Below, one piece after another: positions 3,343-62,360 of a stretch of DNA of 64,000 bases. The notes below the pieces were generated by a model. That model saw only the letters and a program-made list of their open reading frames with translations, searched no databases and had not been told where the DNA came from. Position 1 is the stretch's first letter, and each line of letters begins with the position of its first letter. Where the stretch lies: contig CAZJPJ010000004.1 in NCBI GenBank assembly GCA_964548205.1, positions 21,577-85,576 on the forward strand, read 5' to 3'. The translations under genes were made by a program, and so were the position numbers. The DNA comes from an uncultured Candidatus Saccharibacteria bacterium (GTDB taxonomy: Bacteria; Patescibacteriota; Minisyncoccia; Phycocordibacterales; WO2-35-19).

Positions 3343-3351
3343 AAGATGATT

Positions 3352-15572: not shown

Positions 15573-15860
15573 AAACGGCTACAAATCGTAGAAGAGATGC
15601 GCCCCCTATTGTTTTATTTTTTATCTTGGACGATTTCGGGCTCATAACACCGAGGTCGATACACAAGATTTTGATATAGATTTAATCTATGGAGGCTCTC
15701 TTCAGACTTACCGTTGATTATATTTTCGCTTATCTAACAGAAATATCAATACCCCTCTGTGTCTAATTTTCTGGATTAACTGTGGAAAAAATGTTCAAAA
15801 GCCCCCTAAATCTGTGGGTAACTTTATACACAACAAAATGTCGTTCTTGTATATAAAAAC

Positions 15861-16604: not shown

Positions 16605-16643
16605 AACTATATATTAACACATTTATATAGTGACGTGACCGAG

Positions 16644-17495: not shown

Positions 17496-17498
17496 AAG

Positions 17499-17906
17499 CT
17501 AATTATTTATATAAGTTATGGTCAACTGTAAGCAAGTAGCAAAAGTCACCCAAAGAAGATATGGGATATTGGCATAAACCACCCACCGAAGTGAAGCTGA
17601 TGAGTGCCATGCAGTATAAAGCGCCCAGACAAGAGTAATAAGAACAGCTAAAATATCGATAGAGGCTAGAAGGTTGTTTTTGAGGCCAAACTGTATCGGA
17701 GTAAAGGCAAAATTAAACACAAGATTGAGAGCAAACGGCAAAACTGTAATCAGTGGGATTTGTCTTGTAAAAGCTTTATAGAAAACTGTACCGAAGGATA
17801 TGGCGATAATAGCGTACAACAATGTCCATACCGGCCCAAAAACCCACGATGGCGGCGCCCAACTCGGCCTCAACAAAGCTTGATATGACTCATAGTTGTT
17901 TTCCAT
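17499..17906 (-). CDS. tspO: TspO/MBR family tryptophan-rich sensory protein
   Basis: LRPSWAPPSWVFGPVWTLLY motif and 5 TM helices. Confidence 0.7.
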   Translation of the reverse strand: MENNYESYQALLRPSWAPPSWVFGPVWTLLYAIIAISFGTVFYKAFTRQIPLITVLPFALNLVFNFAFTPIQFGLKNNLLASIDILAVLITLVWALYTAWHSSASLRWVVYANIPYLLWVTFATCLQLTITYINN

Positions 17907-17947
17907 ACCAAAATCATCTCATTTTTTGATAAAAAAAGAAAACTTTG

Positions 17948-18020
17948 CTCCGCGGGTAGGATTCGAACCTACGACCAACCCGTTAACAGCGGGCCGCTCT
18001 ACCAGCTGAGCTACCGCGGA
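17948..18020 (-). tRNA. tRNA-Asn (anticodon GTT)
   Basis: Minus-strand cloverleaf TCCGCGGTAGCTCAGCTGGTAGAGC...CTGTTAA...GGTTCGAATCC...CCGCGGAG. No encoded CCA. Confidence 0.85.
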
Positions 18021-29846: not shown

Positions 29847-30233
29847 ATGAAAAAAGATTTTAAAGATTGGCACAAAGAAAAAAGTTGCTTGCAGGAAGAT
29901 AAGGTTCGTCCATTTTTTCATGAGAGAGAAGTTTGGTTTGCCTCTGTTGGTTTAAATATTGGTTTTGAACAAGACGGTAGAGGGGATAGATTCTTGAGAC
30001 CAGTTATTATTTTAAAGAAATTTAACAATGAAGTACTCTGGTGTATACCACTTACAAAAAATCAGAAGAAAGGGAAATATTATCTTCAATTTAGACTTGG
30101 AGATGAAACCAGCACAGCCATACTCTCTCAGATTCGCCTGATAGATTCAAAAAGATTGCAGTACAAAATCGGAAACCTTGAAGTAGATGACTTTAGTGAA
30201 CTAAAAAAGAAAATCACCCAAATTCTTGGATGA
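29847..30233 (+). CDS. PemK/MazF-family endoribonuclease toxin-like protein, solitary (no adjacent antitoxin ORF)
   Basis: EVWFASVGLNIGFEQDGRGDRFLRPVIILKK...LWCIPLTKNQKK...AILSQIRLIDSKRLQYKIGNL matches the MazF/PemK fold pattern. TATAAT lies 14 nt upstream. Confidence 0.55.
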   Translation: MKKDFKDWHKEKSCLQEDKVRPFFHEREVWFASVGLNIGFEQDGRGDRFLRPVIILKKFNNEVLWCIPLTKNQKKGKYYLQFRLGDETSTAILSQIRLIDSKRLQYKIGNLEVDDFSELKKKITQILG

Positions 30234-38949: not shown

Positions 38950-40301
38950 TTTTGTTTTATACTATCTACTAATAAATTAAACTTCTCTCCCCGATCAAAT
39001 TCATTTTTAAATTTTTCAAAACTCTTGGCCCCCGGTGAAAAGATGATAGCGGTTTTTTTGTTATCAGTTGATTTTGTAAGATCCAAAGCTCTTTTAAAGC
39101 ATTCGTCCAACGAACCATACTCTTGATAACTCTGATAAGAGAGAGCGTTCTTGAGTTTTTCTGTAGCACTACCAGATATAAGTATAAGATTTTCTCTATC
39201 TATCCTTTTATTTATGGCTTCTGCTAAAGGTTTTAGTTCGAGCTCCTTATCGGTACCACCAGCTATGAGTACAGTCCTTTCGCTACCAAACCTTTCTATA
39301 GCAGCAACAGTTGCTTCAGGAGAAGTAGCAGCAGAATCGTTGTATATCTTCAAATTTGCATCAGAATATACAAGCTCCTGTCTAAATTTTATCTGGGGCA
39401 AAGTTTCTACAGCTTTCCTTATATCTGTGTTTATAACTCCAGCAAGAAGTGCGGCTTCAGTAGCAAATAACAGATTGGTGGTATTGTGCAGCCCCCACTT
39501 TTCTTCAAATCTTTTTAGAAAAGCATCGTCATAAACATCAGGATGATTTATATACAAAACTTGTCTGCCATGCCTCAAATCTGAAAAGTATTTTGACCAT
39601 TGTTGATTGTAATCAAGAATAAGAACGTGATCACTAGATTGGCCCAAGAAAATATTTGCTTTTATTCTTGCATAATTTTCGATATTTTTGTGCCGGTTCA
39701 GATGATCAGGATAAATATTGGTGATAATAGCAACAATAGGATCAAAGTTATATTTGTCCACCAGCTCCAAATGATACGAAGGCACTTCTAGGACTACTAT
39801 GCTTTCTTCGTTTATCGAATCTAATGCCTGAAGAAACGGATTTTCTGGATTGTTACCAAGTAAAAAAGTATTTGGAAACTTACTCTTTATAAGATGGTAG
39901 GTCCATGCTGATGTTGTAGTCTTACCTCTCGTCCCTGTAATTGCAACTACTTTCTTACTTTTGCAATATTTATAAAAGAGAGTCAGCTCATTTTCTATCA
40001 ACTTACCTTTTGCTCTTGCCAGCTCTACGTACTTATTATCACTCGGTACATCAGGGTTAATGACAATTATATCGTTATTCAAAAAGTCCAACTCATCATG
40101 CCTACCAAGTTTATAATGTATACGATCTTCAAATTCTTTGAGTTTTTCAATAGAAGAGTTCAGAGCTTCAGCATCCTTCAAGTCTGTGATAGTCAGAAAT
40201 ACTCCTTGATTCAAAAGCCATCTTGCAGTAGCCACTCCGCCACCCAAGATGCCCAAACCCATAAGTAAAACTCTTTTTTCTCTTAGAATCATTTTAGACA
40301 C
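38946..40301 (-). CDS. murD: UDP-N-acetylmuramoylalanine--D-glutamate ligase
   Basis: N-terminal Rossmann region GLGILGGGVA; VVAITGTRGKTTTSAWTYHLI P-loop; C-terminal GGTDKELE. Confidence 0.85.
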   Translation of the reverse strand: MSKMILREKRVLLMGLGILGGGVATARWLLNQGVFLTITDLKDAEALNSSIEKLKEFEDRIHYKLGRHDELDFLNNDIIVINPDVPSDNKYVELARAKGKLIENELTLFYKYCKSKKVVAITGTRGKTTTSAWTYHLIKSKFPNTFLLGNNPENPFLQALDSINEESIVVLEVPSYHLELVDKYNFDPIVAIITNIYPDHLNRHKNIENYARIKANIFLGQSSDHVLILDYNQQWSKYFSDLRHGRQVLYINHPDVYDDAFLKRFEEKWGLHNTTNLLFATEAALLAGVINTDIRKAVETLPQIKFRQELVYSDANLKIYNDSAATSPEATVAAIERFGSERTVLIAGGTDKELELKPLAEAINKRIDRENLILISGSATEKLKNALSYQSYQEYGSLDECFKRALDLTKSTDNKKTAIIFSPGAKSFEKFKNEFDRGEKFNLLVDSIKQK

Positions 40302-41826
40302 TTGTTATTTTCTCGATACTTGCACCGATACTATTGAGCCTATCGACCACATCTTCATAACCACGAGTGATGGAGTAGACATTTCTCAACACAGACGTCC
40401 CACTTGCGGCAAGCATTGCTATAAGGATAATCATCGCAGGTCGCAAGGCTGGAGGACATACCACCTGAGCCCCCTTTAATAGGGTTGGACCGTTTACAAA
40501 AGCTCGGTGGGGATCGACTAGAGTAATGCTGGCTCCCAACTTATTTAGCTCAGTAAAGTGTATAGCCCTATCTTCCCACATCCAGTCGTGTATAAGAGTG
40601 CGACCTTGTGCTTGTGTGGCAATAGGTACAAAAAACGGTAGGTTGTCAGAGTTTAATCCCGGATATGGCAAAGCGTGCAATTTATCATGCGGAGCACTGA
40701 GCTTGGATGGCAAGACAGTTATATCTACGAGCTTAGTGTGACCATTCTTTGCAAGATATGATTTTGATATCAAAAATTTTTGACCCATCTTTTCCAATTT
40801 CAAGACCTCAAGCTGTAGGAAATCTATCGGGCATCTTTTTACTACAAGCCTTGAATTTGTGGTTATAGCAGCAGAAAGAAACATCATAGACTCTATCGGG
40901 TCTTCACTATTTTCATACTCCACATTCTGATTGATCTCCTTTAGCCCCGTCACCTGAAGAGTGGTAGTGCCTATGCCTTCTATCTTCACACCCAACTTCT
41001 GCAGGAAAAAGCAAACCTCCTGCACTTGATAATTCGGGGGTGCAAAACTTATCTTGGTAGTACCCTCAATCAAAGAAGCCAGCATTATGGCATTTTCGGC
41101 GGCAGTATCGCTCGATTCGTAAAGTACTATCTCGTTAGCCTTCAGCTTTTTTGTAGTTATTTCATATTTACCATCCAGACTTTTTATATTCACCCCCAAA
41201 TCTTCGAAGGCAAATTTATGAGCGGCAATAGTTCTCTCTCCCATCTTGCAACCACCTGTATGAAGCATAGGAAAATTCCCAAGATTGTGCACAAAAGCAG
41301 GTATGAGCATCAGACTAGAACGGACACTAGCTACTGATTTGTGCATCAGTCCAGTTTTCTCAAATGTTTTTGGAGGCACGATCTCCAGCGTATGGAGATC
41401 GAGCCAGCGAGTCTTTACTCCCAAATTGCTAAATATCTCTAACATTCTGTTTACCTCTTCGATGCGCGGCATACCTCTAAGAGTAGTAACCCCTTTGTTT
41501 AAAAGCGCAGCACAAAGAAGCCCCATAGCACCATTTTTAGATGGATTTGTGGTAATAGAACCTTTGAGTTTCTTACCACCATGCACCTTAAAATCTACGG
41601 TATCAGAAAGTGAGACGATCTTGTGATCTAGAGCATCGCTGATACGCATCAACTCCTGAGCAGTAAGATTCTGACCACCACGCTCTATCCTAGCAATAGC
41701 ACTTTGGGAAGTGTTCAATCGTTTGGCTAGATCTCCTTGGGTAAGAAGCCTCTTTTCCCTCAACTTTTTGATAAAAGCTCCTATTGCCTTCTGACTCTGA
41801 TCGGTAATGTTTTGCACATTTTTCAT
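40294..41826 (-). CDS. murA: fusion of an N-terminal XRE-family HTH domain to UDP-N-acetylglucosamine 1-carboxyvinyltransferase (MurA)
   Basis: Residues 15-75: LTQGDLAKRLNTSQSAIARIERGGQNLTAQELMRISDAL, a Cro/C1 HTH. From about residue 85 the MurA features begin: KNGAMGLLCAALL...; the Cys/Asp loop ...HTGGCKMGERTIAA; C-terminal ...RGYEDVVDRLNSIGASIEKI. Confidence 0.8.
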   Translation of the reverse strand: MKNVQNITDQSQKAIGAFIKKLREKRLLTQGDLAKRLNTSQSAIARIERGGQNLTAQELMRISDALDHKIVSLSDTVDFKVHGGKKLKGSITTNPSKNGAMGLLCAALLNKGVTTLRGMPRIEEVNRMLEIFSNLGVKTRWLDLHTLEIVPPKTFEKTGLMHKSVASVRSSLMLIPAFVHNLGNFPMLHTGGCKMGERTIAAHKFAFEDLGVNIKSLDGKYEITTKKLKANEIVLYESSDTAAENAIMLASLIEGTTKISFAPPNYQVQEVCFFLQKLGVKIEGIGTTTLQVTGLKEINQNVEYENSEDPIESMMFLSAAITTNSRLVVKRCPIDFLQLEVLKLEKMGQKFLISKSYLAKNGHTKLVDITVLPSKLSAPHDKLHALPYPGLNSDNLPFFVPIATQAQGRTLIHDWMWEDRAIHFTELNKLGASITLVDPHRAFVNGPTLLKGAQVVCPPALRPAMIILIAMLAASGTSVLRNVYSITRGYEDVVDRLNSIGASIEKITSV

Positions 41827-46352: not shown

Positions 46353-49040
46353 CTAAATATTGACTTTCGTATCCAATATACTAGCTTCTATTATAGAACC
46401 ACGTCTACCTTTCTTGATATCAAAAATAAGCTCTCCACCTTTTTCAGAAACAGTTATCGAACCACCTTTCAAGACTTTCTTCGATATGATGTAAGAAGCG
46501 ATAGGATTGAGTATCTTATTTTGGATAAGGCGCTTGAGTGGTCTTGCACCATATTGTGGGTTGTAGCCTTCGTTTGCAAGGTAAACAAGAGCGCTATCTT
46601 CTACTTTGATGCTTATTTCTTTCTCTTCCAACCTCTTAGCCACCAGCTCGATCTGGATCTTTACGATATCTGCCACCGCTTCTTTACTTAGAATATCGAA
46701 GAGGATGATATCATCGATACGATTGAGAAATTCTGGCCTAAAGTGATCCTTGAGAGCCGCAAGCACCTTGTCTTTTACTGCCCCATAGTCTCCATCTTTC
46801 TTCTCCCCATCGGCAAATCCAATCTTTTCCATCCTATCAATGTATTGAGCACCTATGTTTGAAGTCATGATGATGATGGTATTTTTGAAGTTGACTGTCC
46901 TACCTTTCGAATCTGTCAGACGACCATTGTCTAGCACTTGGAGCAGTAAGTTGAAAACTTCCGGATGAGCTTTTTCTATTTCATCAAAAAGGACGATTGA
47001 ATACGGTCTATGACGGACCATGTCAGTAAGACTGCCACCTTCTTCATACCCTACGTATCCTGGAGGAGCCCCGATCAATTTTGATATGGCATGGCGCTCC
47101 ATGTATTCGGACATATCGATACGAAGCAAGGCCTTCTCATCGTTAAACATAAAGTCAGCCAAAGCTTTAGTAAGCTCTGTCTTACCTACTCCAGTAGGCC
47201 CAAGAAAAATGAACGAGCCAATAGGCTTGTTTGGGTCGCTTATACCAGCCCGAGAACGCTTGATAGTATCGCTGATCTTTTGGACAGCTTCGTCTTGACC
47301 AATGATTCTTGATTTGAGCTCTTCTTCCATCCTTCCGAGTTTCTCGGCTTCTTCTTCGAGCATACGAGTCACTGGTATACCAGTCCACCTAGAGACCACA
47401 CTCGCTATATCTGTTTCGGTAATTTCTTCTCTCAAAATTCTTCTGGAACTCTGAAGTTTCTTGAGCTTCTTCATACTCAGGTCGAGATTCTTCTCAAGAT
47501 TTGGAATAGTGCCATAACGTATTTCCGCCGCTTTCGATAAATCAACTACAGCCTCAGCAGACTCTGCATCAAGCCTAGCTTGCTCTAGCTTCTTCTTGGT
47601 ATCTTTTATCTCTGTCACTGTTTCCTTCTCGTTTTTCCACTTGAGATCTATCTCTCTTATTTTTTCTTGCAGATCAGCGATCTCTTGGTCGACTTGAACC
47701 AGACGGTCTTTGGCTTTGTTGTTTTTGGTCGATTCATTTTTCAAGGCCTCACGTTCTATCTCGAGCTTCACAATCTTAGAATTGGTCTCTTGCAAAACTG
47801 GAGGCATATTCTCAAGAGAGATCTTGAGCTCAGAAGCGGCTTCGTCGATAAGATCGACTGCTTTGTCCGGAAGGAACCTATCTGTGATATATCGAGTGCT
47901 TAAGTTTACCGCCGCTTTGATGGCATCATCAGTGATACGCACGCCATGATAGAGCTCATACTTTTCTTTGAGACCTCTTAAAATAGTTGTGGCGTCTTCT
48001 ACGTTTGGTTCTGAGACATAGACTGGTTGGAAGCGCCGAGTCAGAGCTGGGTCTTTCTCGATATGCTTCTGATATTCTTTGATGGTGGTAGCCCCTATGG
48101 CTCGAAGCTCGCCTCTAGCGAGAGGGGGTTTGAGCATATTGGATGCGTCGAGCGAGCCTTCTGCACTGCCAGCTCCGACGATAGTGTGTATCTCATCTAT
48201 AAAGAGGATTATTTTGCCGTTTGATTTTTCGACTTCTTTTATTATATTTTTTAGTCTTTCTTCAAATTCTCCTCTGTATTTGGTACCCGCCACAAGCAAA
48301 CCTACGTCTAAGGACACCAGCTCTTTGTCTTTTAGCGACTCCGGCACATTACCAGAAACTATCCGCATAGCCAAGCCCTCGGCAATAGCAGTCTTACCTA
48401 CACCCGCTTCTCCGATCAATATCGGGTTGTTCTTAGTGCGACGCGAAAGTATTTGGATAATTCTTGATATTTCTATGTCTCTACCAATAACTGGATCAAG
48501 CTTGTTCTCTTTGGCAAGCTTGGTAAGAGAACGAGTATACTTGACTAGAGTTTTAGCCTTGCCTTCACCGCCACTTGCACCTATACGACCTTGTTTTATC
48601 TCCTGTATTACGTACATCACTTTTTCCTTTTCGATCTTAAACTTGGCAAGCATATCTTTGGCTGGACCTGGCACATCGAGGCAAGCTATGAACAGATGCT
48701 CAGTAGAAACAAACTCATCTCCCATAGAGCTTGCCACCTTGGAAGAATGTTCAATGATGTGAGCTAGTTCGGGAGTAATGTATATCTGATAAGAAGGAGT
48801 CAGAGTGCCCCCACCTGGTTCGCCTTCTATGACTTCAAGAAGAGAATCGGTTAGTAGAATATGGTCCACTTCCAGAGTATCGAGTACCGAGATAACCATG
48901 CTCTCTTCCTGCAATATGAGAGCAGTAAGAAGGTGGAGAGGGCCTACGTGGTTACTACCACGTTCAATAACCAGTTCGTGAGACTTCCTGATGACTTCCT
49001 TAGCTTTGGTCGTAAAACGATTGAATGGAATCATAAGCAA
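46353..49040 (-). CDS. clpB: ATP-dependent chaperone ClpB (both AAA domains intact, coiled-coil M-domain)
   Basis: ILIGEAGVGKTAIAEGLA and ILFIDEIH (D1); IFLGPTGVGKTELTKALA and VLFDEIEKAH (D2); long coiled-coil between them. Confidence 0.9.
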   Translation of the reverse strand: MLMIPFNRFTTKAKEVIRKSHELVIERGSNHVGPLHLLTALILQEESMVISVLDTLEVDHILLTDSLLEVIEGEPGGGTLTPSYQIYITPELAHIIEHSSKVASSMGDEFVSTEHLFIACLDVPGPAKDMLAKFKIEKEKVMYVIQEIKQGRIGASGGEGKAKTLVKYTRSLTKLAKENKLDPVIGRDIEISRIIQILSRRTKNNPILIGEAGVGKTAIAEGLAMRIVSGNVPESLKDKELVSLDVGLLVAGTKYRGEFEERLKNIIKEVEKSNGKIILFIDEIHTIVGAGSAEGSLDASNMLKPPLARGELRAIGATTIKEYQKHIEKDPALTRRFQPVYVSEPNVEDATTILRGLKEKYELYHGVRITDDAIKAAVNLSTRYITDRFLPDKAVDLIDEAASELKISLENMPPVLQETNSKIVKLEIEREALKNESTKNNKAKDRLVQVDQEIADLQEKIREIDLKWKNEKETVTEIKDTKKKLEQARLDAESAEAVVDLSKAAEIRYGTIPNLEKNLDLSMKKLKKLQSSRRILREEITETDIASVVSRWTGIPVTRMLEEEAEKLGRMEEELKSRIIGQDEAVQKISDTIKRSRAGISDPNKPIGSFIFLGPTGVGKTELTKALADFMFNDEKALLRIDMSEYMERHAISKLIGAPPGYVGYEEGGSLTDMVRHRPYSIVLFDEIEKAHPEVFNLLLQVLDNGRLTDSKGRTVNFKNTIIIMTSNIGAQYIDRMEKIGFADGEKKDGDYGAVKDKVLAALKDHFRPEFLNRIDDIILFDILSKEAVADIVKIQIELVAKRLEEKEISIKVEDSALVYLANEGYNPQYGARPLKRLIQNKILNPIASYIISKKVLKGGSITVSEKGGELIFDIKKGRRGSIIEASILDTKVNI

Positions 49041-52723: not shown

Positions 52724-52805
52724 TGCCCGAGGTGGGGGTCGAACCCACATCCCTTTCGAGACACGATTTTAAGTCGTGCGCGTATACCGATTCCGCCACT
52801 CGGGC
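52724..52805 (-). tRNA. tRNA-Leu (anticodon TAA)
   Basis: GCCCGAGTGGCGGAATCGGTATACGCGCACGACTTAAAATCGTG...GGGTTCGACCCCCACCTCGGGCA. Confidence 0.8.
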
Positions 52806-52876
52806 ATCCGCCTACACTTCGCACAAGCGAAGCGCTGAACTTTTATAGTCGCTCCCTGCTCCTTAAAAATTCAAGG

Positions 52877-52948
52877 AGGCCTAGGGCGGAATCGAACCGC
52901 CGTATAAGGGTTTTGCAGACCCTTGCCTTACCACTTGGCGACTAGGCC
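52877..52948 (-). tRNA. tRNA-Cys (anticodon GCA)
   Basis: GGCCTAGTCGCCAAGTGGTAAGGCAAGGGTCTGCAAAACCCTTATACGGCGGTTCGATTCCGCCCTAGGCCT. Confidence 0.8.
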
Positions 52949-52980
52949 GTGTCGCAATATTAACATATTGACCTATTTTA

Positions 52981-53296
52981 GTCCGCTCAGAGGGAATCGG
53001 TCACGAGTTCCTTCGCCAAGCTCAGGACTCTCGACCCCAGCTCGCCCGTCTCGCTTTGCTCGACATGGCTCCGCTTTTCGATTCCTCACGCAAGCAAAGC
53101 AGTTTGCTTGCTTTCGCGTCCAAACCGCTTCGCAACTTGTCCGCTCAGAGGGAATCGGTCACGAGTTCCTTCGCCAAGCTCAGGACTCTCGACCCCAGCT
53201 CGCCCGTCTCGCTTTGCTCGACATGGCTCCGCTTTTCGATTCCTCACGCAAGCAAAGCAGTTTGCTTGCTTTCGCGTCCAAACCGCTTCGCAACTT
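52981..53296. repeat. two tandem 158 bp repeat units, each beginning (in plus-strand view) with a 19-nt copy of the tRNA-Lys 3' end
   Basis: Units at 52981..53138 and 53139..53296 are essentially identical. Each starts gtccgctcagagggaatcg, the 3' end of tRNA-Lys. Each contains the hairpin gcaagcaaagcagtttgcttgc. Confidence 0.75.
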
Positions 53297-53297
53297 G

Positions 53298-53370
53298 TCC
53301 GCTCAGAGGGAATCGAACCCCCGACCATCTCCTTAAGAGGGAGCTGCTCTACCAGCTGAGCTATGAGCGG
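53298..53370 (-). tRNA. tRNA-Lys (anticodon CTT); the acceptor stem begins C1:G72
   Basis: CCGCTCATAGCTCAGCTGGTAGAGCAGCTCCCTCTTAAGGAGATGGTCGGGGGTTCGATTCCCTCTGAGCGGA. Confidence 0.75.
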
Positions 53371-53415
53371 ATACTCTTTATATTTTTATCATAAAATTTC
53401 TTTGATAGAAATTTG

Positions 53416-53496
53416 TGCTGAGGAGAGGACTTGCACCTCCACGCCTTGCGGCACTAGTTCCTAAGACTAGCGTGTCTTCTATTTCACCACCTCAGC
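53416..53496 (-). tRNA. tRNA-Leu (anticodon TAG), class II; atypical D-loop (no GG) and a T-loop TGCAAGT (G55)
   Basis: GCTGAGGTGGTGAAATAGAAGACACGCTAGTCTTAGGAACTAGTGCCGCAAGGCGTGGAGGTGCAAGTCCTCTCCTCAGCA. Confidence 0.55.
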
Positions 53497-54800: not shown

Positions 54801-55041
54801 GCAAACTATCCTTCAACCGGGATTTTATATACCGTCTGCCCCAAGCAGTTTTAAGATACTTTTCTCTTTTTAGAGAATCTCTGCTACTTGAACAGGCTTC
54901 ATAATATACAAGTCTCCATGGCCCGCGGTTTTTTGTAGCAATAGACTTATTGTCGTTATGTTCTTTAAGTCTTCGCTTCAGATCAGAAGTATATCCGATA
55001 TAAAACTGCTTTGGGCCTTTGATTATGTATACGTAGTGCAT
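54760..55041 (-). CDS. GIY-YIG nuclease family protein (UPF0213/YhbQ-like), paralog 2; its 3' end overlaps the predicted 5' end of rnpB
   Basis: MHYVYIIKGPKQFYIGYTSDLKRRLKEHN. Confidence 0.65.
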   Translation of the reverse strand: MHYVYIIKGPKQFYIGYTSDLKRRLKEHNDNKSIATKNRGPWRLVYYEACSSSRDSLKREKYLKTAWGRRYIKSRLKDSLQLSHVEESPNTGI

Positions 55042-55177
55042 AATTTACAATTATCTCACGTGGCTGTTGCACGAAATATGGCCTGAAATATAGGTTATCA
55101 CACATTTCCCCAAAATTCAACATTTTGCTTGCATTTTCTATCATAATATGCTATAATAAAAGTAGGAGGTGGTCATA

Positions 55178-55579
55178 ATGAAGATCACATTATTGCTCGT
55201 TTTCACGCTGGTCGCGGTGACCAGCTCCACTTTGCTGGCCCAAGGCCGGCAGGCCGGCTCGGTGGCCATCGCCGAGCACATCAGTTCAAACCTTGTGCTC
55301 GACTCAGTGAAGTGCCTGGAGCGAGCAACAAATAACAATATTAGGGCTGGAGAGAAAAATCCGGCCGAAAAGGCATCCAAGTTTTGTCAAACCTCAGTCA
55401 ACGCTGAAGTTAAGAGGAGTACGGGGGTTGCCAACGAGGCCGCAGACGCCACAAAGGCATCGGCCCCTCGGGGAGTAGTTCTTCCCGGGGGAATAGGACT
55501 TGGTTGGGGGGGTTACTACGGGGGAGGAGGCTTCATCCTCCGCAGGCCGATCGGTCGGCGGCAGATAGTCCGGCGGTAA
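55178..55579 (+). CDS. secreted hypothetical protein with a Gly/aromatic-rich C-terminal tail (GGIGLGWGGYYGGGGFILRRPIGRRQIVRR); GC-elevated
   Basis: AGGAGGTG Shine-Dalgarno site, 6 nt, ATG; Sec signal MKITLLLVFTLVAVTSSTLLAQG. Confidence 0.5.
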   Translation: MKITLLLVFTLVAVTSSTLLAQGRQAGSVAIAEHISSNLVLDSVKCLERATNNNIRAGEKNPAEKASKFCQTSVNAEVKRSTGVANEAADATKASAPRGVVLPGGIGLGWGGYYGGGGFILRRPIGRRQIVRR

Positions 55580-55588
55580 GACCGCCAA

Positions 55589-55630
55589 TCCCGTCGAGAT
55601 GCACACAGCACCTCGACGGGATTTTTATTT
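55589..55630 (+). terminator. intrinsic terminator
   Basis: atcccgtcgag-atgcacacagcacc-tcgacgggat followed by ttttattt. Confidence 0.55.
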
Positions 55631-55639
55631 ACAAAAACC

Positions 55640-55668
55640 TTGCATTTTCCACCCTTTTGTGATATAAT
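55640..55668 (+). promoter_or_regulatory. sigma70-type promoter (TTGCAT, 17-nt spacer, TGtGATATAAT extended -10)
   Basis: ttgcat-tttccacccttttgtga-tataat. Confidence 0.5.
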
Positions 55669-55715
55669 AGAGGGTGGAAGTAGATCTTCTACAAATCTAT
55701 TTAGAGGCAACGAAA

Positions 55716-56852
55716 ATGACGGAAAAGAATGAAGAAAAGATCCAAGAAAAAGGGGTGGGTGGCCCCAACCCCCCACCGGAATACCAGTGGATAGTTACGG
55801 TCCCCCAAGAGTGGTTCAGACTGGTTCTTAGGGGAGAGGACCTTGACTCAATTATCCACGGAGCGCGTGGATACAGAGTCAACGAGGAATTGGAATTTGA
55901 AAAAATCCCACCGGGATTTGAAGACGCTTACGACCTATCACCTAGACACCTCTTCCGCCAAGTAACTGGGCGGGAATTCGTCGGGATTCCCAAGCTCAAG
56001 AGGACCGGTATATACGGAAAAAAATTCCGTTGGGCCGCGTTTTTTCCAAGAACCGAAGGAGGTGGTGAGAACGGTAAACCGGTATACACGCCGGGCTGGC
56101 ACGACCAAGAAATCGTGCGGGCATTTCCTCTCGTATCGAGTTACCCTCTAACCTTTACAAATATCGACGTACAAGGTCGAGAGGTGACAACTGGCGACCC
56201 GTCGATCGTCCAGATCGCGATGACGGTCATCATCCGAGTCAGGATGCTAAGGCCACGGATCGCACTGATGCAAAATACCGACTGGCTCGGAAACGGCGTG
56301 TCCCCCTATCTCCAAGGTCGCATTGGTGACTATATGAGGACTGGAGGAGATGACACAAATATTATGTCCTATGACCGTGTCATACGTCGTGATAGATTGA
56401 ACGGTAGAGGAAGTCGGTTTCGCAACACCTTTCTCGGCACGTTGATCAATGGCGGAAAGCAAGTCGAGCGAAGCAGTTTGAGACTCTCCTTACTTGCACA
56501 GTATGGAGTGGACCTCATCGACGTGCAAGTCGTCGATGTGCAAACGAACGAAGAGTTCGAGAAGAAGCTGAGAGCACTAGCCGACGCCGATATCGATGCC
56601 GCAATCATCGAGCGGCAGGCAAGAGCCGAAGCCCAGAAGCGAAAGCTTCAGGCTGAGGCCGAGGGAGAGTATATTCGCCAAACATCAGCCGCCATTCAGG
56701 ACAGACTCCGCCGGTTGATGGAAAGCATGGGAGGAGACGCGGCTAGCGTAAGGGCGATCGAATATGCCTATGCCCTGCGCGACTCCAAACTCACCACCCT
56801 TGCCGGGGCCGGCGTCAGCCTCGTCGTAGGCCCAGACGGCACCATCCGCTAG
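55716..56852 (+). CDS. SPFH/Band-7-domain protein with a roughly 160-aa N-terminal extension and no predicted TM; GC-elevated
   Basis: ...YGVDLIDVQVVDVQTNEEFEKKLRALADADIDAAIIERQARAEAQKRKLQAEAEGEY... then ...VRAIEYAYALRDSKLTTL...VVGPDG, which fits the SPFH core plus the coiled-coil pattern of HflK/C, stomatin and flotillin. Confidence 0.55.
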   Translation: MTEKNEEKIQEKGVGGPNPPPEYQWIVTVPQEWFRLVLRGEDLDSIIHGARGYRVNEELEFEKIPPGFEDAYDLSPRHLFRQVTGREFVGIPKLKRTGIYGKKFRWAAFFPRTEGGGENGKPVYTPGWHDQEIVRAFPLVSSYPLTFTNIDVQGREVTTGDPSIVQIAMTVIIRVRMLRPRIALMQNTDWLGNGVSPYLQGRIGDYMRTGGDDTNIMSYDRVIRRDRLNGRGSRFRNTFLGTLINGGKQVERSSLRLSLLAQYGVDLIDVQVVDVQTNEEFEKKLRALADADIDAAIIERQARAEAQKRKLQAEAEGEYIRQTSAAIQDRLRRLMESMGGDAASVRAIEYAYALRDSKLTTLAGAGVSLVVGPDGTIR

Positions 56853-56994
56853 ACCCAAGCCCTGTTTAGGGCAAACCAACCCCCAAATGCATCGCTTTCA
56901 AGGCATAGCGTGAGGGGGTTGCTTTTTTATACGAAATGTGCTATAATATAAATAGGTCTGTGTACAATAACAATTGCATAAGGAGACGAAGGAA

Positions 56995-58227
56995 ATGAAC
57001 GCAATAAATAGTGGAAATGGCCGCTTGATTAGCGGCCAGACGATGGCCCAGTCTTTCTGGGCCCAGTTCTGGGCCTGGATCAAGTATAGTTGGGCGACAA
57101 GTGGGTGGTGGAAAAAAATCACCCTCGTCCTGCGGGCAATCTGGGCACTCCTGGTCGCAGGAGTACGGTTTCGGATCTTATCAGCAGGGCTCGCCGGATT
57201 GGCCGCTTTGGCCATCATCCTCGGGGTAGCATACTGGTTCGTGATGGGTGGTTACAAGTGGTTATTTAGCTCCACTATGTGGATGCTGTTTGCCACTGCC
57301 ATCTTCATCGGCCTATGGTGGCACCTTCGGAAGTACAAGGATGAGGATTTCGTAAAAATTGCGGGGGGAAAGTTCGTAGCCAAACCCCTGCGGTCAGCTC
57401 CGTTATGGGCAATCGCTGTCATCTGGGCAATCTGGGTCGCCGTTCAGGCGATAATTCTGGGTTGGCAAGGTGTGGTCGCGATCTACAAGCTCGCCGCAGA
57501 CTGGTTCTTCAACTTTTCTGGGGGGCTCGCTCTCTGGAAAGTCGCTCTGGGTTTACTCCTGCTAGCCGGCATTGTGTGGGTAATAAGCATACTCGTCCGG
57601 TGGGCAAGAAAGTCTAGAGAGGAGAACGACAAAACCTTTGGACTCGGCTCGGCCCTCGTAGTCGGCATGGTGGCAGTAGCAATACTGAACACCATACTGT
57701 TTCTCGAAGCGTATCTATGGATCGCTTTCGCAGAGAACCACACGGCTGGGTTCCTGGGAACCAACCTCTCTCTCTGGCTTGCTGTAAGCGCATGGCTGGT
57801 CAGAGACAAGGAGGGCAACCGCCCCGCTTGGTCTGCCAATGCTTCAAATATCCTATTTGCTCTCGCTTTAATCGGCGTCAGCATAGCGGGATGGGAGGCA
57901 TTCCGGCAAATCGAGGAACCGATTACTTACGAGGCGGTTCCTGGAGGGGTACTGGCAAAGGTTCTTGCTCCAATCGACGATTGGAGTAAAAACCTATCCG
58001 TCCGAGGAAACAAGTTCAACCTTGAAACCGTCCCCGGACGGAAGTTCAAGGTGAAATTCCTCGGATACGAGGTTAAGGACGGGAGAAGGATTCCTTTGGT
58101 CAAAGTTTTCGTGGTCAACGACAATGACCACGATTTCGAGACTGATGGAGTGATTCAAGAAATACTTGTTCAATCACTCGATGGGAGACCGATGAGAGTT
58201 CCAGTCGAGATGATGTCGCGGCGATAA
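56995..58227 (+). CDS. Trp-rich polytopic membrane protein (about 8 TM) with a roughly 110-aa C-terminal soluble domain; GC-elevated; function unknown
   Basis: AAGGAGA Shine-Dalgarno site; TATAAT at 56943; TM helices rich in W (WAQFWAWIKYSW..., LWAIAVIWAIWVAV...). Confidence 0.45.
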   Translation: MNAINSGNGRLISGQTMAQSFWAQFWAWIKYSWATSGWWKKITLVLRAIWALLVAGVRFRILSAGLAGLAALAIILGVAYWFVMGGYKWLFSSTMWMLFATAIFIGLWWHLRKYKDEDFVKIAGGKFVAKPLRSAPLWAIAVIWAIWVAVQAIILGWQGVVAIYKLAADWFFNFSGGLALWKVALGLLLLAGIVWVISILVRWARKSREENDKTFGLGSALVVGMVAVAILNTILFLEAYLWIAFAENHTAGFLGTNLSLWLAVSAWLVRDKEGNRPAWSANASNILFALALIGVSIAGWEAFRQIEEPITYEAVPGGVLAKVLAPIDDWSKNLSVRGNKFNLETVPGRKFKVKFLGYEVKDGRRIPLVKVFVVNDNDHDFETDGVIQEILVQSLDGRPMRVPVEMMSRR

Positions 58228-58300
58228 ATTTCCACCCTTCTCCTTATGCACACCCCCGCTTGGTTTCGGCCATGCGGGGGTGATTTTTTATAAAGCTTTT

Positions 58301-58564
58301 TTACAACCCCAAAAGCCCAGAGTAAGTGATACCAAAAGTAGAGAGCACGAGGCGCAATATGCCATAGACGCTAAACATCACAAACATCCCCACAATTCCA
58401 TAGAACACTGTGCTCTTTTTTTTCTCCAAGTCTCCCCCGTCTGCCCCCCATATAAGCCTTACTACACCCCAGAAGAAGACTACAGTAGCTATAGCGAAGC
58501 CGAAGACTATCACTGGATTGATGATATAAGTGGCTATCTTACCGAGCAAAATTTTTATTGGCAT
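58301..58564 (-). CDS. small two-TM protein, paralog 1 of a VirB2/TrbC-like array (no signal peptide)
   Basis: ...VFGFAIATVVFFWGVVRLIWGADGGDLEKKKSTVFYGIVGMFVMFSVYGIL... Confidence 0.5.
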   Translation of the reverse strand: MPIKILLGKIATYIINPVIVFGFAIATVVFFWGVVRLIWGADGGDLEKKKSTVFYGIVGMFVMFSVYGILRLVLSTFGITYSGLLGL

Positions 58565-58639
58565 TGGCTAAATAATAGCACAACCCCGACACTATTTTGT
58601 GTGTCGGGGTTGTGCAAAAGACAATTATTTCTTTTCTTA

Positions 58640-59002
58640 TTACCCTTGTGGGACAAGATCAGTAGGACTGAAGCCAGGACCAGTACCAGTATCTATATCG
58701 AGAGAGCTACTTAGGAAGTTTACCAAGCCCCAGACAGCTGCCATGACGAAGAGGGCTACTACACCCCAGATCATAGTCTTCTTTGCCTTCTCCTTGTCGT
58801 GCTCACCACCAAAGATGTATAGAGCCAAACCCCAGAAGAAGAAGAGCATAGCAAGAGCAAATACTATAGGGATGAGGATGTTGATGATATCACCTACAGA
58901 TGATGCCAGAGTCTTTATGTTGTCGAGTTGCTGTGCTCCTGCTACCAACGGTAGAGAGAACATAGAAGCAACCAAAGCTATTTTCTTCATTTTTATAAAC
59001 AT
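58640..59002 (-). CDS. secreted two-TM small protein, paralog 2 (VirB2/TrbC pilin-like topology)
   Basis: Signal MKKIALVASMFSLPLVAGAQQ; ...IPIVFALAMLFFFWGLALYIFGGEHDKEKAKKTMIWGVVALFVMAAVWGLV. Confidence 0.55.
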   Translation of the reverse strand: MFIKMKKIALVASMFSLPLVAGAQQLDNIKTLASSVGDIINILIPIVFALAMLFFFWGLALYIFGGEHDKEKAKKTMIWGVVALFVMAAVWGLVNFLSSSLDIDTGTGPGFSPTDLVPQG

Positions 59003-59105
59003 TAATTATTAAACGACCGTTTTAATATATCACAATTATACCCAATTTGCAAAAACACGCGCAACTCTGTAATCCACAGCAGACATTTTTTGAATCAAAA
59101 ACTAA

Positions 59106-59546
59106 TTAAATATCGCCCAACAATAATGGCGTCTCTCCCCCACCACTTGAAGCACTTCCATCCAGATTTATATTTGGCACAGTTTGATAATTACCCACAT
59201 CTCTAATACCAAATTCTCGTCTCAAGAAAAATACCAGACCCCAAACTGAAGACATTACGAAGAGTGCTACAACTCCCCATACCATTATCCTCTTACCATC
59301 ATCTTTACCTTCACCTTCAGAGCGAATGTACTTTGCAACACCCCAGAAGAAGAAGAGCATAGCAGCCGCAAAAGCAAGGGGCACCAATATATTTGAAACT
59401 AGAGATAGAGCATTGGTAAAAAATCTATCCGTGCCGCCTAGAGGTTCTGAAGTCAACACCTGAGCATTGGCAACTGTAAAAGTCAGACAATACAGCGTTA
59501 TCAATAGAATCTTATTTACACTTTTCTTCATTTTGTTTTCAAACAA
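59106..59546 (-). CDS. secreted two-TM small protein, paralog 3
   Basis: Signal ...LTFTVANAQ; ...VPLAFAAAMLFFFWGVAKYIRSEGEGKDDGKRIMVWGVVALFVMSSVWGLVFF. Confidence 0.55.
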   Translation of the reverse strand: MFENKMKKSVNKILLITLYCLTFTVANAQVLTSEPLGGTDRFFTNALSLVSNILVPLAFAAAMLFFFWGVAKYIRSEGEGKDDGKRIMVWGVVALFVMSSVWGLVFFLRREFGIRDVGNYQTVPNINLDGSASSGGGETPLLLGDI

Positions 59547-59552
59547 TTTAAC

Positions 59553-59831
59553 TTATAAGCTATTGCCTTGGATACTGATCGTATCCTTTTGCGGCAATTG
59601 AAATTCTTTTTGTATAAACTCTATTATACCCCATATAGAGAAAACTACGAATATCCCTAGGAGTCCCCACATCATCACCCTCCTACCCTCTTCTGCTGCC
59701 CTATCTCCCCCAGCGTCTTTGCGGATATACTTGGCAATGCCCCAGAAAAAGTAAAGTAGGCACAAAGCAAAGGCAAGAGGCACCATAGTACCTGTTATGA
59801 TCGACGTTGCTCTTTGGACAAGTTCTACCAT
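59553..59831 (-). CDS. two-TM small protein, paralog 4 (start taken at MVELV so that it abuts paralog 5)
   Basis: ...MVPLAFALCLLYFFWGIAKYIRKDAGGDRAAEEGRRVMMWGLLGIFVVFSIWGII. Confidence 0.5.
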   Translation of the reverse strand: MVELVQRATSIITGTMVPLAFALCLLYFFWGIAKYIRKDAGGDRAAEEGRRVMMWGLLGIFVVFSIWGIIEFIQKEFQLPQKDTISIQGNSL

Positions 59832-59835
59832 ATTG

Positions 59836-60114
59836 TTATTTAATGAATATTTGAGGTATGCCCAGAGTATCACCAAAACCAAACTCCTTTCTTATAAATA
59901 TCAGAATACCCCATATAGAGAACATTATAAAGATACCGATAACTCCCCATATTATGATATTTTTGCTCTTGGCTAGCTCATTCTCATTGCCCGCACTCCT
60001 TATAAACCTTCCGACTCCAAAAACAAAAGATACAAAGGCTAGTGCTGCAAGGAAAGGTACCAATACCAAGGCCATATCTGTAAATTTTTCCAATACTTGT
60101 GTCAGATTGTCCAT
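59836..60114 (-). CDS. two-TM small protein, paralog 5
   Basis: ...LVPFLAALAFVSFVFGVGRFIRSAGNENELAKSKNIIIWGVIGIFIMFSIWGILIF. Confidence 0.5.
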   Translation of the reverse strand: MDNLTQVLEKFTDMALVLVPFLAALAFVSFVFGVGRFIRSAGNENELAKSKNIIIWGVIGIFIMFSIWGILIFIRKEFGFGDTLGIPQIFIK

Positions 60115-60134
60115 TTTGTATCTATATTTTCAAA

Positions 60135-60548
60135 TTAACCTCCAAGCTGTTTTACGGTGCCCCCTATGGCATTGGCGATGACCCAAGCCCCTAGCAATAT
60201 AGCGGCTCCCACCACTCCGTACAAAAGAGCCTGGTGAGCCTTGGCTATCTTGCTCTCATTTCCACCTGCGGTCACATACAAAAAGCCAGCGTAGATGATC
60301 ATAATAACTGCGATAACAGCCCCTATTGGCAATATGATCTCGTTGATTATGAGCCTAAGGAAACTATCTACATCTTTCACATCCCCTTTCAGAGGATTTT
60401 GGATGTCTATACTATAGCTAACAGGTGGCTCCGAGTTATTACCACTTATGTCTGCAAACAAAGCAAGGGGGGCTATCATGCCGATGATTATCATTATAGT
60501 CACTATAGCTATAAATATTTTTTTGTAAGTATCTTTTACCTTTAGCAT
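60135..60548 (-). CDS. secreted two-TM small protein, paralog 6; the closest match to the VirB2/TrbC pilin pattern
   Basis: Signal/anchor; ...ILPIGAVIAVIMIIYAGFLYVTAGGNESKIAKAHQALLYGVVGAAILLGAWVIANAIGG. Confidence 0.55.
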   Translation of the reverse strand: MLKVKDTYKKIFIAIVTIMIIIGMIAPLALFADISGNNSEPPVSYSIDIQNPLKGDVKDVDSFLRLIINEIILPIGAVIAVIMIIYAGFLYVTAGGNESKIAKAHQALLYGVVGAAILLGAWVIANAIGGTVKQLGG

Positions 60549-60549
60549 G

Positions 60550-60981
60550 TTATTTGTTTAGTTGTACAGCATCGTTTATATCTGGCCTAAAGATAGCTCG
60601 CGATATGGTGCCGACTATAAGCCAAGCTGCTAGCATGATAACAAACCCGATAAAAACTTTCTTGAACAACTCTTTGGCTTCAGAACGCCTATCAGAGACT
60701 CCAGTAGTCATAAGTATAAAACCAGCATAAGCAAAAGCCCCCGCCGCTATAGGTACTGATATTTTCACAAGGTATCCCAATATCTTGTTTACCAGAGTGA
60801 CAAGCTTCTCCAAACTGCATTCATCTCCCGGCAAGCCACTGCAGACTACAAAACCTCTGTTTTCATCCCTATCATTCTGAGCATTTGCGACTGTGGGTAA
60901 AAGGTTCAGTGCAAAAATAAACAGACACAGCAGAGCCATCAGACTTTTGAATTTATAACTTTGTACTTTCAAACTTTTCAC
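60550..60981 (-). CDS. secreted two-TM small protein, paralog 7
   Basis: Signal ...LLPTVANAQ; ...ISVPIAAGAFAYAGFILMTTGVSDRRSEAKELFKKVFIGFVIMLAAWLIVG. Confidence 0.55.
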   Translation of the reverse strand: MKSLKVQSYKFKSLMALLCLFIFALNLLPTVANAQNDRDENRGFVVCSGLPGDECSLEKLVTLVNKILGYLVKISVPIAAGAFAYAGFILMTTGVSDRRSEAKELFKKVFIGFVIMLAAWLIVGTISRAIFRPDINDAVQLNK

Positions 60982-61004: not shown

Positions 61005-62300
61005 TCATTTACCCAAAAGCAGTACGTCGATTTCTCTGTTTGCTCTAGAAAGAGCGTCCCCAATTCTCGAACGACCGCTGGTTATCGACTCTACCATGGA
61101 CTTAAAGACTGCGTTTGTCTCTAGTGGTTCTGGATCGAGCCAACCTCTCGCCATGATAGCACTTTCATAAAAGATAACCTTATATGCATCCGTCTGCCTT
61201 TCTGCAAGCAAGTCTCGCCTTACCGGTGGAAGATTCATCATGGTACTAATAACCTCAGCGCTTTCTCCCAATGCTAAAGCGTTTGCTACAGTGAAAGCTG
61301 CGTTTGGATTTTTGGATGTTTTGGTTATTGCAAAACCATAAAAATCACCAAAAGTGACATTTTCACCATTTTCTCTAGGCACTGGTATCTTGGTTACATC
61401 GAAGTTTAGGTTTGGGTTCTTTATATTTATACTAGAAAGCTCACTTGCGGGACCGAAATACATAGCCAAGTCACCACCCAAGAAATATGTCAGGGAATCT
61501 GGCAATGACCTATTCCAAGAATAAGAACTTTTGGCTGGATTACCAAACTCTGTATAGAAGTTGAGAGCAGATTCTGCAGGCAATATAGGCTTGTTCGATG
61601 GGTTTAGAGTCCATGCACTTTTGGGCTCACTGCCTAGCCAATAGACTATAGGGGTACTGGCTTGCATGGCCAGAGTAGCGATTATGTCCTTTGCGTGGCG
61701 TATGTTTGAAAATTCCCCCATAGAGACAGCACTACGTTGGATATTTAGAGCCCCGTCCTTTATAGAAATCTGTGAAGAAAGACCATAAAACTGATCCCAA
61801 TATTTGGGTGGCAATGTCACCTGAACATCGTTAAAAATAGACCTGTTCCAATACATGACAAGCGGATCTACGACCACAGGTAGAGCCATAGCTCCATCTG
61901 GAAACATAAATATCTCAGCTCCTTCTATGAAAGCATCTTTGTATTGCCTCTGTGTAAACACGTCATAAGGTAGCGGCAATATTTTGTTTGAATGTTTGAG
62001 TAGTTTGGAGCTAGGGAGCAAAATAAGATCAGGGCCATCACCTGAAGCTAGTGCTTCAATAAAACTTTGGTCAAACTCATCGCTGGATCGATATTTGTAT
62101 TCGATCTTTATGTTTGATTTGCTGTTGGAAGAAAAGGGGCTCGACTCTACTATGGTGTACCAATCGCTCTGAGGTATGCTGCCCCAGACTGATACTACTA
62201 CCTCTTGGCCAGACGAACCTTTGTATGCAGAGAAAACAATAACCCCACCTATGATAAACAAACCAAAGACGGCCGTAAGGATGATCTGAAATTTTGACAT
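61005..62300 (-). CDS. extracellular solute-binding protein (ABC transporter SBP family 1-like), N-terminally anchored
   Basis: N-terminal TM then a roughly 400-aa alpha/beta domain with aromatic-rich ligand-pocket-like segments; weak family assignment. Confidence 0.5.
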   Translation of the reverse strand: MSKFQIILTAVFGLFIIGGVIVFSAYKGSSGQEVVVSVWGSIPQSDWYTIVESSPFSSNSKSNIKIEYKYRSSDEFDQSFIEALASGDGPDLILLPSSKLLKHSNKILPLPYDVFTQRQYKDAFIEGAEIFMFPDGAMALPVVVDPLVMYWNRSIFNDVQVTLPPKYWDQFYGLSSQISIKDGALNIQRSAVSMGEFSNIRHAKDIIATLAMQASTPIVYWLGSEPKSAWTLNPSNKPILPAESALNFYTEFGNPAKSSYSWNRSLPDSLTYFLGGDLAMYFGPASELSSINIKNPNLNFDVTKIPVPRENGENVTFGDFYGFAITKTSKNPNAAFTVANALALGESAEVISTMMNLPPVRRDLLAERQTDAYKVIFYESAIMARGWLDPEPLETNAVFKSMVESITSGRSRIGDALSRANREIDVLLLGK

Positions 62301-62360
62301 AACAAAATTATACTAGAGCAATTTTTTATTGCCCACAAAAACAGTGGATTCAAATGTTAT

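Follow-up and report, generated by a model that had tools for sequence, protein, structure and literature searches.

We analyzed a 64,000-nucleotide stretch of DNA (the window; positions 21,577 to 85,576 of contig CAZJPJ010000004.1, assembly GCA_964548205.1) from an uncultured bacterium that was deposited as a Saccharibacterium. On the minus strand, at 58301-60981, the window has seven adjacent open reading frames (ORFs) for small proteins that resemble VirB2, a pilin of type IV secretion systems (T4SS). Our preferred explanation, to which we assign a probability of roughly 0.6, is that these seven differentiated VirB2-like genes and an upstream gene for a homologue of solute-binding proteins (SBPs) form a native, conserved operon of the Paceibacteria, whose products contribute to a pilus-like structure that is built by a T4SS and that recognizes glycans via the SBP homologue.

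We numbered the genes of the array from pil1 (58301-58564) to pil7 (60550-60981), with pil7 transcribed first and pil1 last. Counted as longest ORFs, they encode 87-146 amino acids each. In Kyte-Doolittle analysis, each of the seven proteins shows two segments, about 20-24 residues long, that are strongly hydrophobic. The first helix terminates in FFFWG, YFFWG, FVFG, or YAGF, and the second hydrophobic helix follows after a loop of 12-15 amino acids that is rich in glycine and in lysine or arginine (by manual segmentation, the fraction of K/R is 0.17-0.33). At the sequence level, pil2, pil3, pil6, and pil7 appear to have Sec-type leaders with AxA-like sites (VAGA/QQ, ANA/QV, LFA/DI, and ANA/QN, respectively, with the slash at the expected cut), and the alanine at position -1 of the pil2 leader is conserved in at least 90% of 66 homologues. 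In the AlphaFold2 model of pil2, which has a predicted local distance difference test (pLDDT) score of 76, a leader helix is followed by a long helical hairpin (H26-64/H67-100). An initial annotation of this DNA, made without database searches, had described seven consecutive minus-strand genes of 87-146 amino acids with a common two-helix design, a charged glycine-rich loop, and a leader on four of the seven. The ORFs are where that annotation placed them, our segmentation agrees with the shared design, and the hydrophobicity profiles and the hairpin in the model of pil2 fit small proteins in which a short polar loop connects two hydrophobic helices, as in the T4SS_pilin family of Pfam.

The annotation also proposed that the seven genes are paralogs, and this holds as well. 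Pairwise BLAST comparisons among pil1 to pil6 gave E values down to 1e-25, with 22-46% identity. Pairwise similarity of pil7 to the other proteins is weak; at the level of profiles, the pil2-, pil6-, and pil7-type orthologues match each other with hhalign probabilities of 97-99% and E values of 2.6e-11 to 6.4e-22 (for the pil7 type, E = 1.6e-13 against the pil2 type and E = 6.4e-22 against the pil6 type). Because BLAST links pil1 to pil6, and hhalign ties together the pil2, pil6, and pil7 types, all seven are paralogs. A hidden Markov model (HMM) built from the seven genes found no eighth copy in the window. Some of the start codons need adjustment. The longest ORF for pil4 (109 amino acids, 59553-59882) overlaps the upstream pil5 by 47 nucleotides, and its start is most likely Met18 (59831), which would give a protein of 92 amino acids. 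Similarly, pil3 and pil2 probably begin at an internal MKK, at 59531 and 58990.

To which family do these proteins belong? Six of the seven exceed the gathering threshold of Pfam's T4SS_pilin family (PF18895; 26.6 bits), with scores of 28.6-51.9 bits. In order, these are pil2 (51.9), pil7 (48.3), pil6 (35.5), pil4 (35.0), pil5 (33.8), and pil3 (28.6); the exception is pil1. For TrbC/VirB2 (PF04956), the sole match is pil6, at 22.1 bits (E = 1.8e-4), against a threshold of 27.9 bits. Five of the seven proteins match the NCBIfam model for the Mbov_0395 pilin-like conjugal transfer protein (NF045849), at 24-31 bits, which is below its cut-off of 40 bits. A profile built from 66 homologues of pil2 had the pKM101 conjugative pilin TraM (PDB 8cw4) as its top match in the PDB; this similarity is weak (E = 0.019), and TraM is the only solved structure that was matched by sequence among the pil-type profiles. 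None of the pil proteins matched PHROGs at E < 0.01, and at E < 1 Pfam yielded no family of holins or bacteriocins. Overall, these results support the view that the seven genes are one superfamily that is VirB2-like, or T4SS_pilin, at the family level. So the annotation's proposal of VirB2/TrbC-like pilins has support at the family level, from an HMM search that favored PF18895 and gave no holin. Its suggestion that pil6 and pil7 fit VirB2 best stands only in part: pil6 is the one protein with any similarity to PF04956, and pil2 has the highest score for PF18895, with pil7 second.

We searched for relatives with a fragment of GyrA, which is encoded upstream of the array, and found 80 loci with 66-80% identity, all from metagenome-assembled genomes of Patescibacteria. 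They are labelled as Zambryskibacteria, Taylorbacteria, Campbellbacteria, Paceibacterota, Parcubacteria, or the generic "Saccharibacteria". The GTDB class of these names is Paceibacteria (Table S1 of PMC12102498). Judging from the GyrA relatives and from those labels, the host is a member of the class Paceibacteria and is similar to Zambryskibacteria.

The array lies downstream of gyrA in 65 of the 80 loci, usually with 5-8 pilin-like genes (range 1-8; seven-gene HMM, E ≤ 1e-3). Since the other 15 loci all stop within 2.5 kb past gyrA, the array is present in every informative locus (65/65). The neighborhood of the array, from gyrA to the gene for IF-2, is the same across the 65 relatives. As another example, in OZ246398.1 (742,714 bp), precomputed Pfam labels give an SBP_bac_1 gene and then seven PF18895 genes.

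The order of the genes is conserved as well. We grouped the 353 pilins from these loci by their nearest paralog in the window, which gave four types. The first position is held by the orthologue of pil7 in 59/59 loci and the second by that of pil6 in 56/65; the orthologue of pil2 is penultimate in 49/62, and that of pil1 is last in 56/61. Type A (pil7; 143 amino acids, PF18895 at 48.3 bits) has a signal peptide, an extracellular segment with two near-invariant cysteines, and a hairpin with the FAYAGF helix. (In the alignment of type A orthologues, C47 and C55 are each at least 90% conserved.) Type B (pil6; 60135-60548, minus strand, 137 amino acids) has a leader, a conserved NP motif, and a hairpin with the IIYAGF helix. 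Type C comprises pil5 to pil2, which share the pattern FFWG...GDEK...WG...LFVM. Within type C, pil5 (59836-60114, minus strand) has 92 amino acids and is similar to pil3 and pil4 (BLAST E = 1e-19), and pil4 (59553-59831, minus strand) has orthologues of about 91-100 amino acids. pil3 (59106-59546, minus strand), which is a 146-residue ORF and probably 141 residues from the ATG at 59531, has a 38-residue C-terminal tail and is 46% identical to both pil2 and pil4. pil2 (58640-59002, minus strand) is a 120-residue ORF and probably 116 residues from the ATG at 58990. It is the most conserved of the paralogs, with 67-74% identity to its orthologues in two relatives (loci L001 and L002). Type D (pil1; minus strand, 87 amino acids) is short, leaderless, and last. 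Although pil1 scores just 17.3 bits against PF18895, it is 39% identical to pil2 (BLAST E = 2e-15), and its orthologue in another relative (locus L081) has a weak match to PF18895.

Only the middle genes, of the FFWG type, vary in number between relatives, from about 2 to 5 copies. Identity to orthologues in the two closest genomes is 35-74%, which exceeds the 22-46% identity of paralogs within a genome, so the duplications of pil genes predate the radiation of this group. Given the fixed, collinear order across 65 genomes, the paralogs are old and differentiated.

The gene immediately upstream of the array (61005-62300, minus strand) was overlooked by the initial annotation. It is the first gene of the operon, and it encodes a membrane-anchored, MalE-like homologue of SBPs with 431 amino acids (SBP_bac_1 at 69.4 bits and SBP_bac_8 at 53.7 bits). 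It has an N-terminal hydrophobic helix without a lipobox cysteine. Its AlphaFold2 model (pLDDT 84) is similar to sugar-binding SBPs and MalE in the PDB (Foldseek E = 6e-21, TM-score 0.60-0.69), and a profile search of the PDB found mannooligosaccharide-, maltose-, and sucrose-binding proteins (for 4r9f, E = 4.5e-11). In 51 homologues, many of the aromatic positions are invariant.

All of the pilin-bearing loci (65/65) have a homologue of this gene just ahead of their first pilin gene. The gap between the two has a median of 1 nucleotide and is at most 60 nucleotides in 61 of the 65 loci, and overlaps of 1-4 nucleotides are frequent. The SBP homologue and the array are apparently translationally coupled. 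The distance from gyrA to the SBP gene ranges from 8 to 4,121 nucleotides, with intervening genes. We found no genes for the permease or ATPase of an ATP-binding cassette (ABC) transporter (BPD_transp or ABC_tran) anywhere in the window, or adjoining the SBP gene in L001 or L081. Because no such gene adjoins it, the SBP homologue is not a normal component of an importer. A search of the literature for coupling between SBPs and pilins, and for Mbov_0395, found nothing relevant.

Signals for expression point to pil2 as well as to the operon as a whole. A consensus scan placed a promoter-like site (TGGGCA-17-TATAAT, with 10/12 matches to the consensus) between gyrA and the SBP gene, at 62307-62335 on the minus strand; this is a putative promoter for the operon. 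Within the array, the median gap ahead of the penultimate gene is 100 nucleotides (54 loci), while the other junctions are at most 16 nucleotides. In the window, this gap has 103 nucleotides (59003-59105, minus strand) and would hold a promoter and the 5' untranslated region of pil2. Its motifs, which close relatives have kept, are a TATAAT hexamer (59040-59035), a DnaA-box-like 9-mer (TGTGGATTA, at 59078-59070 on the minus strand), and GGTCGTTTAAT (59018-59008). The last of these is an instance of the element GGTCGTT(T/C)AAT, in the 5' untranslated region of pil2, which is also present in L001, L002, L005, and L006, and is degenerate in L007. (This element occupies the expected position of the Shine-Dalgarno sequence but is not purine-rich.) The DnaA-box-like motif (TTATCCACA, with at most one mismatch) is present, in either orientation, in 22 of 49 such gaps, about 76-105 nucleotides upstream of the pil2-type gene. 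Its density in the gaps is 3.2 per kb, versus 0.49 per kb in other stretches without ORFs, which is about 6.5-fold higher. The motif might reflect regulation by DnaA or by another factor with a similar site.

Downstream of pil2, the junction with pil1 has a terminator-like hairpin (58578-58615, minus strand) with a stem of 15 bp, which includes 10 G-C pairs, and a T-rich tail. The 75-nucleotide gap that contains it has a minimum free energy of -34 kcal/mol, and L001, L003, L005, and L006 have similar hairpins at this junction. Because pil2 has a promoter-like gap of its own, a hairpin downstream, the highest conservation, and the best score for PF18895, it is likely to be the major subunit.

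How does this operon compare to known systems? Quinonero-Coronel et al. (2025, PMC12102498) reported 441 arrays from Patescibacteria with 2-11 pilin genes, with a mean identity of 25% and a maximum of 54%, so this kind of feature is already known. They defined an array as 2-11 genes with PF18895 or PF04956, in tandem or one non-pilin gene apart. The array in the window fits that description, with seven adjacent genes in a member of the Patescibacteria and with the 22-46% identity given above. The same study found VirB2-like pilins in 1,948 assemblies of Patescibacteria that also have VirB4, with the pilin genes near virB4 in 1,135 of these, and proposed that the arrays serve adaptation to different host strains. 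The T4SS cluster of Southlakia epibionticum ML1 includes a tandem of six PF18895 genes (SEML1_0014-0019), each of which is essential for epibiotic growth (Wang et al. 2023, PMC10633639). Like the array in the window, these published arrays are tandem and chromosomal, are found in the same phylum, have no relaxase, combine PF18895 with an occasional sub-threshold match to PF04956, and show low identity between paralogs. Unlike the array of S. epibionticum, the array in the window is from the Paceibacteria and is outside of, and away from, a cluster of virB4, virB6, and prgI. Also, arrays of the type in the window have the same order over many genera and are always behind a gene for a MalE-like SBP, while the locus in S. 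epibionticum has no SBP gene, and PMC12102498 is silent on SBPs. What is new here is the presence of the operon in all 65 informative relatives, the four positional subtypes, the coupling to the SBP homologue, and the promoter-like gap and hairpin around pil2.

Among better-studied pilins, the pil proteins are similar to VirB2, TrbC, TraA, and TraM in their size, in the apparent leader of four of the seven, and in having a short basic loop between two hydrophobic helices. They differ from these diderm pilins in that no virB genes are nearby, three of the seven are leaderless, and the host is monoderm. Bartonella and Anaplasma are host-dependent bacteria that also have several divergent genes of the VirB2 family in tandem. 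Those copies are in or beside the virB locus and are thought to vary antigens or the interaction with host cells, whereas the array in the window is collinear, ancient, differentiated into subtypes, and apart from the apparatus. As for NF045849, five of the seven pil proteins cover nearly all of this 80-residue model. Mbov_0395 is a single gene within an integrative conjugative element (ICE) of mycoplasma, unlike the array; both come from wall-reduced or monoderm lineages with T4SS of the mating-pair formation type FATA (MPF-FATA). MPF-FATA systems are said to be without VirB2 homologues (PMC12102498). The matches to Mbov_0395 hint that, in monoderms without a wall, some MPF-FATA systems may have a native pilin-like component. 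The SBP homologue, for its part, has the SBP_bac_1 domain and the bilobed, MalE-like fold of family 1 (MalE-type) SBPs. It differs from them in having a transmembrane anchor, instead of being a lipoprotein or soluble, in having no adjacent permease or ATPase, and in always being followed by pilin-like genes.

We propose the following model. The pil proteins would insert into the cytoplasmic membrane as helical hairpins, four of them via a cleavable Sec leader, while the other three, with short N-terminal tails, would probably insert directly. Both termini would be outside, with the Lys/Arg-rich loop in the cytoplasm. VirB4-type (MPF-FATA-like) machinery that is encoded elsewhere in the genome would then extract the subunits and polymerize them. 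(In support of this, VirB4 is listed as "Yes" in Table S1 of PMC12102498 for two relatives that have the operon, GCA_001029775.1 [L057] and GCA_001189165.1 [L023].) The product would be a pilus-like filament, or a conduit, that serves the bacterium in its epibiotic interaction with the host. pil2 would be the major subunit of the filament, and types A (pil7, with an ectodomain that could form a disulfide), B (pil6), and D (pil1) would be specialized as minor subunits or as base or tip subunits. The SBP-like protein would be a carbohydrate-binding accessory that recognizes glycans of the host or captures ligands derived from it. That the pil proteins form a pilus is inferred.

Several observations weigh against this proposal. 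When we scanned every ORF of at least 120 amino acids in the window against Pfam, we found no VirB4, VirD4, VirB6, relaxase, or integrase, in line with the initial annotation's statement that no apparatus genes adjoin the array. No genes for the ATPases or channel of a T4SS lie within 58 kb on one side of the array or within about 3 kb on the other. Similarly, VirB4, VirB6, and VirD4 are absent from the 10 kb on either side of gyrA in L001, and there is no apparatus gene near the array in L081. Because VirB4, VirB6, and VirD4 are absent from the window and from the flanks in L001, the link to a T4SS comes from the family annotation and from other genomes. Furthermore, pil1, pil4, and pil5 have no signal peptide at the sequence level; none of the seven genes reaches the threshold for the canonical TrbC/VirB2 family; and the pil6-type and pil7-type profiles did not find any solved pilin in the PDB. 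Nothing in the model of a T4SS predicts the coupling to an SBP. Finally, a 2025 review describes the pilus of a monoderm T4SS as "intriguing" but unproven, and a T4SS pilus has never been visualized in any Patescibacterium (PMC12857230).

Many of these observations are just what we would see if the pil proteins stayed in the cytoplasmic membrane and formed, together with the MalE-like protein, an envelope complex that is independent of any T4SS, such as a receptor or uptake pore for carbohydrates of the host, or a scaffold that organizes the membrane. The obligate coupling to the SBP homologue at a median distance of 1 nucleotide, the lack of nearby T4SS genes in the window, L001, and L081, the three leaderless members, the weak or insignificant similarity to solved pilins, and the lack of an ABC permease or ATPase beside the SBP gene would all fit. 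We know of no precedent for SBPs that act with hairpin proteins with two transmembrane helices, and the architecture, with its leader, paired helices, and basic loop, is that of conjugative pilins. The family also has strong ties to T4SS elsewhere: its genes are inside the T4SS cluster and essential in S. epibionticum (PMC10633639), and pilin genes are near virB4 in 1,135 of the 1,948 assemblies (PMC12102498). So we consider a T4SS-independent complex to be unlikely.

The initial annotation had suggested three other meanings for the array, and none of them fared well. One was a variable surface repertoire. If the paralogs were interchangeable variants for host range or antigenic variation, as proposed for VirB2 of Bartonella and Anaplasma and suggested in PMC12102498, this could account for their low identity to each other (22-46%), for the varying number of middle FFWG-type genes (about 2 to 5), and for orthologues that diverge faster than GyrA (35-74% versus 66-80% identity). 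But a repertoire of interchangeable variants does not explain why orthologues keep the same collinear positions in 65 genomes, with only the middle copies varying in number, or why each of the four subtypes retains its own motifs, such as the cysteine pair of pil7 and the NP of pil6. Also, the genes form a single operon, and we saw no silent cassettes, recombination repeats, or invertible promoters. We doubt that the array is a repertoire of this kind. Another suggestion was a family of membrane-active peptides, similar to holins or to two-peptide bacteriocins. All that speaks for this is that the proteins are small and have two hydrophobic helices. The searches of PHROGs and Pfam were negative, the operon has no gene for a lysin, immunity, or bacteriocin export (the lone ABC_tran gene near an array is in L010), and the genes are kept beside housekeeping genes in every informative relative, so this is very improbable.

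The third suggestion was that an ICE has decayed here and that the array is what remains of its cargo end. The name of the family is tied to conjugation, and a GC-rich variable block and a cluster of tRNAs lie downstream of the array. However, the G+C content of the array (0.409) is that of its background (0.412 for the window), the pil ORFs are intact, the window has no integrase, relaxase, or coupling protein, and 65 relatives with 66-80% identity of GyrA have this operon in the same neighborhood, between gyrA and IF-2. A remnant of an ICE is thus hardly credible. The annotation had also stated that the array has a higher G+C content than the core genome, and this is not the case (single pil genes range from 0.36 to 0.45). 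Probably, this impression came not from the array but from a neighboring block at 55000-58300, which is on the opposite strand, between the array and the tRNA cluster, and has a G+C content of 0.516 (0.57-0.64 at third codon positions). We return to the T4SS-built, glycan-recognizing structure as our preferred reading of the operon.

The GC-rich block contains three genes on the plus strand: a 136-residue ORF (55169-55579), a gene for an SPFH/Band-7 protein (55674-56852), and a gene for a protein of 417 amino acids with eight transmembrane segments (56974-58227). Among the relatives, homologues of the SPFH protein are in the same slot in L001 and L002 only, and the G+C content is raised there as well. 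The 417-residue protein, which is encoded convergently to the array, has no homologue in the 80 loci. We considered it as a VirB6-like or VirB1-like partner of the pilins, and it has no match in Pfam, NCBIfam, or PHROGs. Between pil1 and this gene is a G+C-rich hairpin (58251-58282); because its T-run is on the plus strand, it is primarily a terminator for the plus-strand gene, and it is possibly bidirectional.

In 27 relatives, the slot convergent to the end of the array holds a different gene, for a fast-evolving polytopic membrane protein (L001 at 15541-17001, L007 at 15805-17211, L069 at 16462-17994, and 24 others). In this protein, a lysozyme-like domain carries the conserved motif AACES...GxxQIN; a profile search of the PDB gave a match to C-type lysozyme (E = 3.8e-4), and similarity to the Lys and SLT_3 families of Pfam is faint. 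It is possible that this protein, beside the pilins, is a VirB1-like hydrolase of the cell wall. The protein that occupies this slot in the window is not homologous to it; a comparison of the 417-residue protein to a profile of the relatives' protein gave no match. We also looked for large ORFs with Walker A motifs across the loci as candidates for VirB4, and found only GyrA, IF-2, one long protein, and an ABC_tran exporter. The long protein is one of a cluster of seven ORFs for proteins of 473-1792 amino acids. The exporter (L010, at 15658-17496) is a 612-residue protein of the exporter type with fused transmembrane and ABC_tran domains; it follows the array on the same strand, and L010 is the sole locus of this kind.

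The rest of the window is housekeeping chromosome, with genes for PBP2, MreB/C, two Clp ATPases, TopA, RelA/SpoT, Mur enzymes, ParB, DprA, IF-2, GyrA, and eight tRNAs. Four of the tRNA genes are within 800 nucleotides, straight after the gene for IF-2 (52724-53496, minus strand), and a spurious ORF of 137 amino acids (52923-53336) overlaps them. There are two MreB paralogs (4393-5475 and 9004-10053) and two ClpB/ClpC-like ATPases (22066-24486 and 46353-49040), one of which has no detectable first AAA domain. A MurA of the UDP-GlcNAc enolpyruvyl transferase type (EPSP_synthase domain; 40294-41826, minus strand) has an N-terminal HTH_3 domain (Cro/C1-type), which is an unusual fusion. A gene for a MazF/PemK-like toxin (29847-30233) is present in this small-genome organism.

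In Patescibacteria, the T4SS proved essential in the single species for which this was tested, and the pilin genes that go with it were unexpected. Paralogs that are ancient, ordered, and differentiated into subtypes argue for a heteromeric structure rather than for a repertoire for antigenic variation. Because of its promoter-like region and its hairpin, pil2 is an obvious target for proteomics or structural studies, and the invariable presence of a MalE-like protein in the operon points to a glycan or a sugar as the ligand. More tentatively, the SBP homologue and the seven pil proteins might be a single, lineage-specific surface machine: a heteromeric, T4SS-dependent pilus for adhesion or uptake, rather than for the export of DNA or effectors, with pil2 as the major subunit and types A, B, and D as fixed minor ones. 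Its SBP-like component would bind carbohydrates, and would either recognize glycans of the host envelope or pass sugars from the host on to the conduit. If so, then these bacteria would encode a surface machine apart from its ATPase core, and the DnaA-box-like site ahead of pil2 would raise the possibility that the machine is regulated by the cell cycle.

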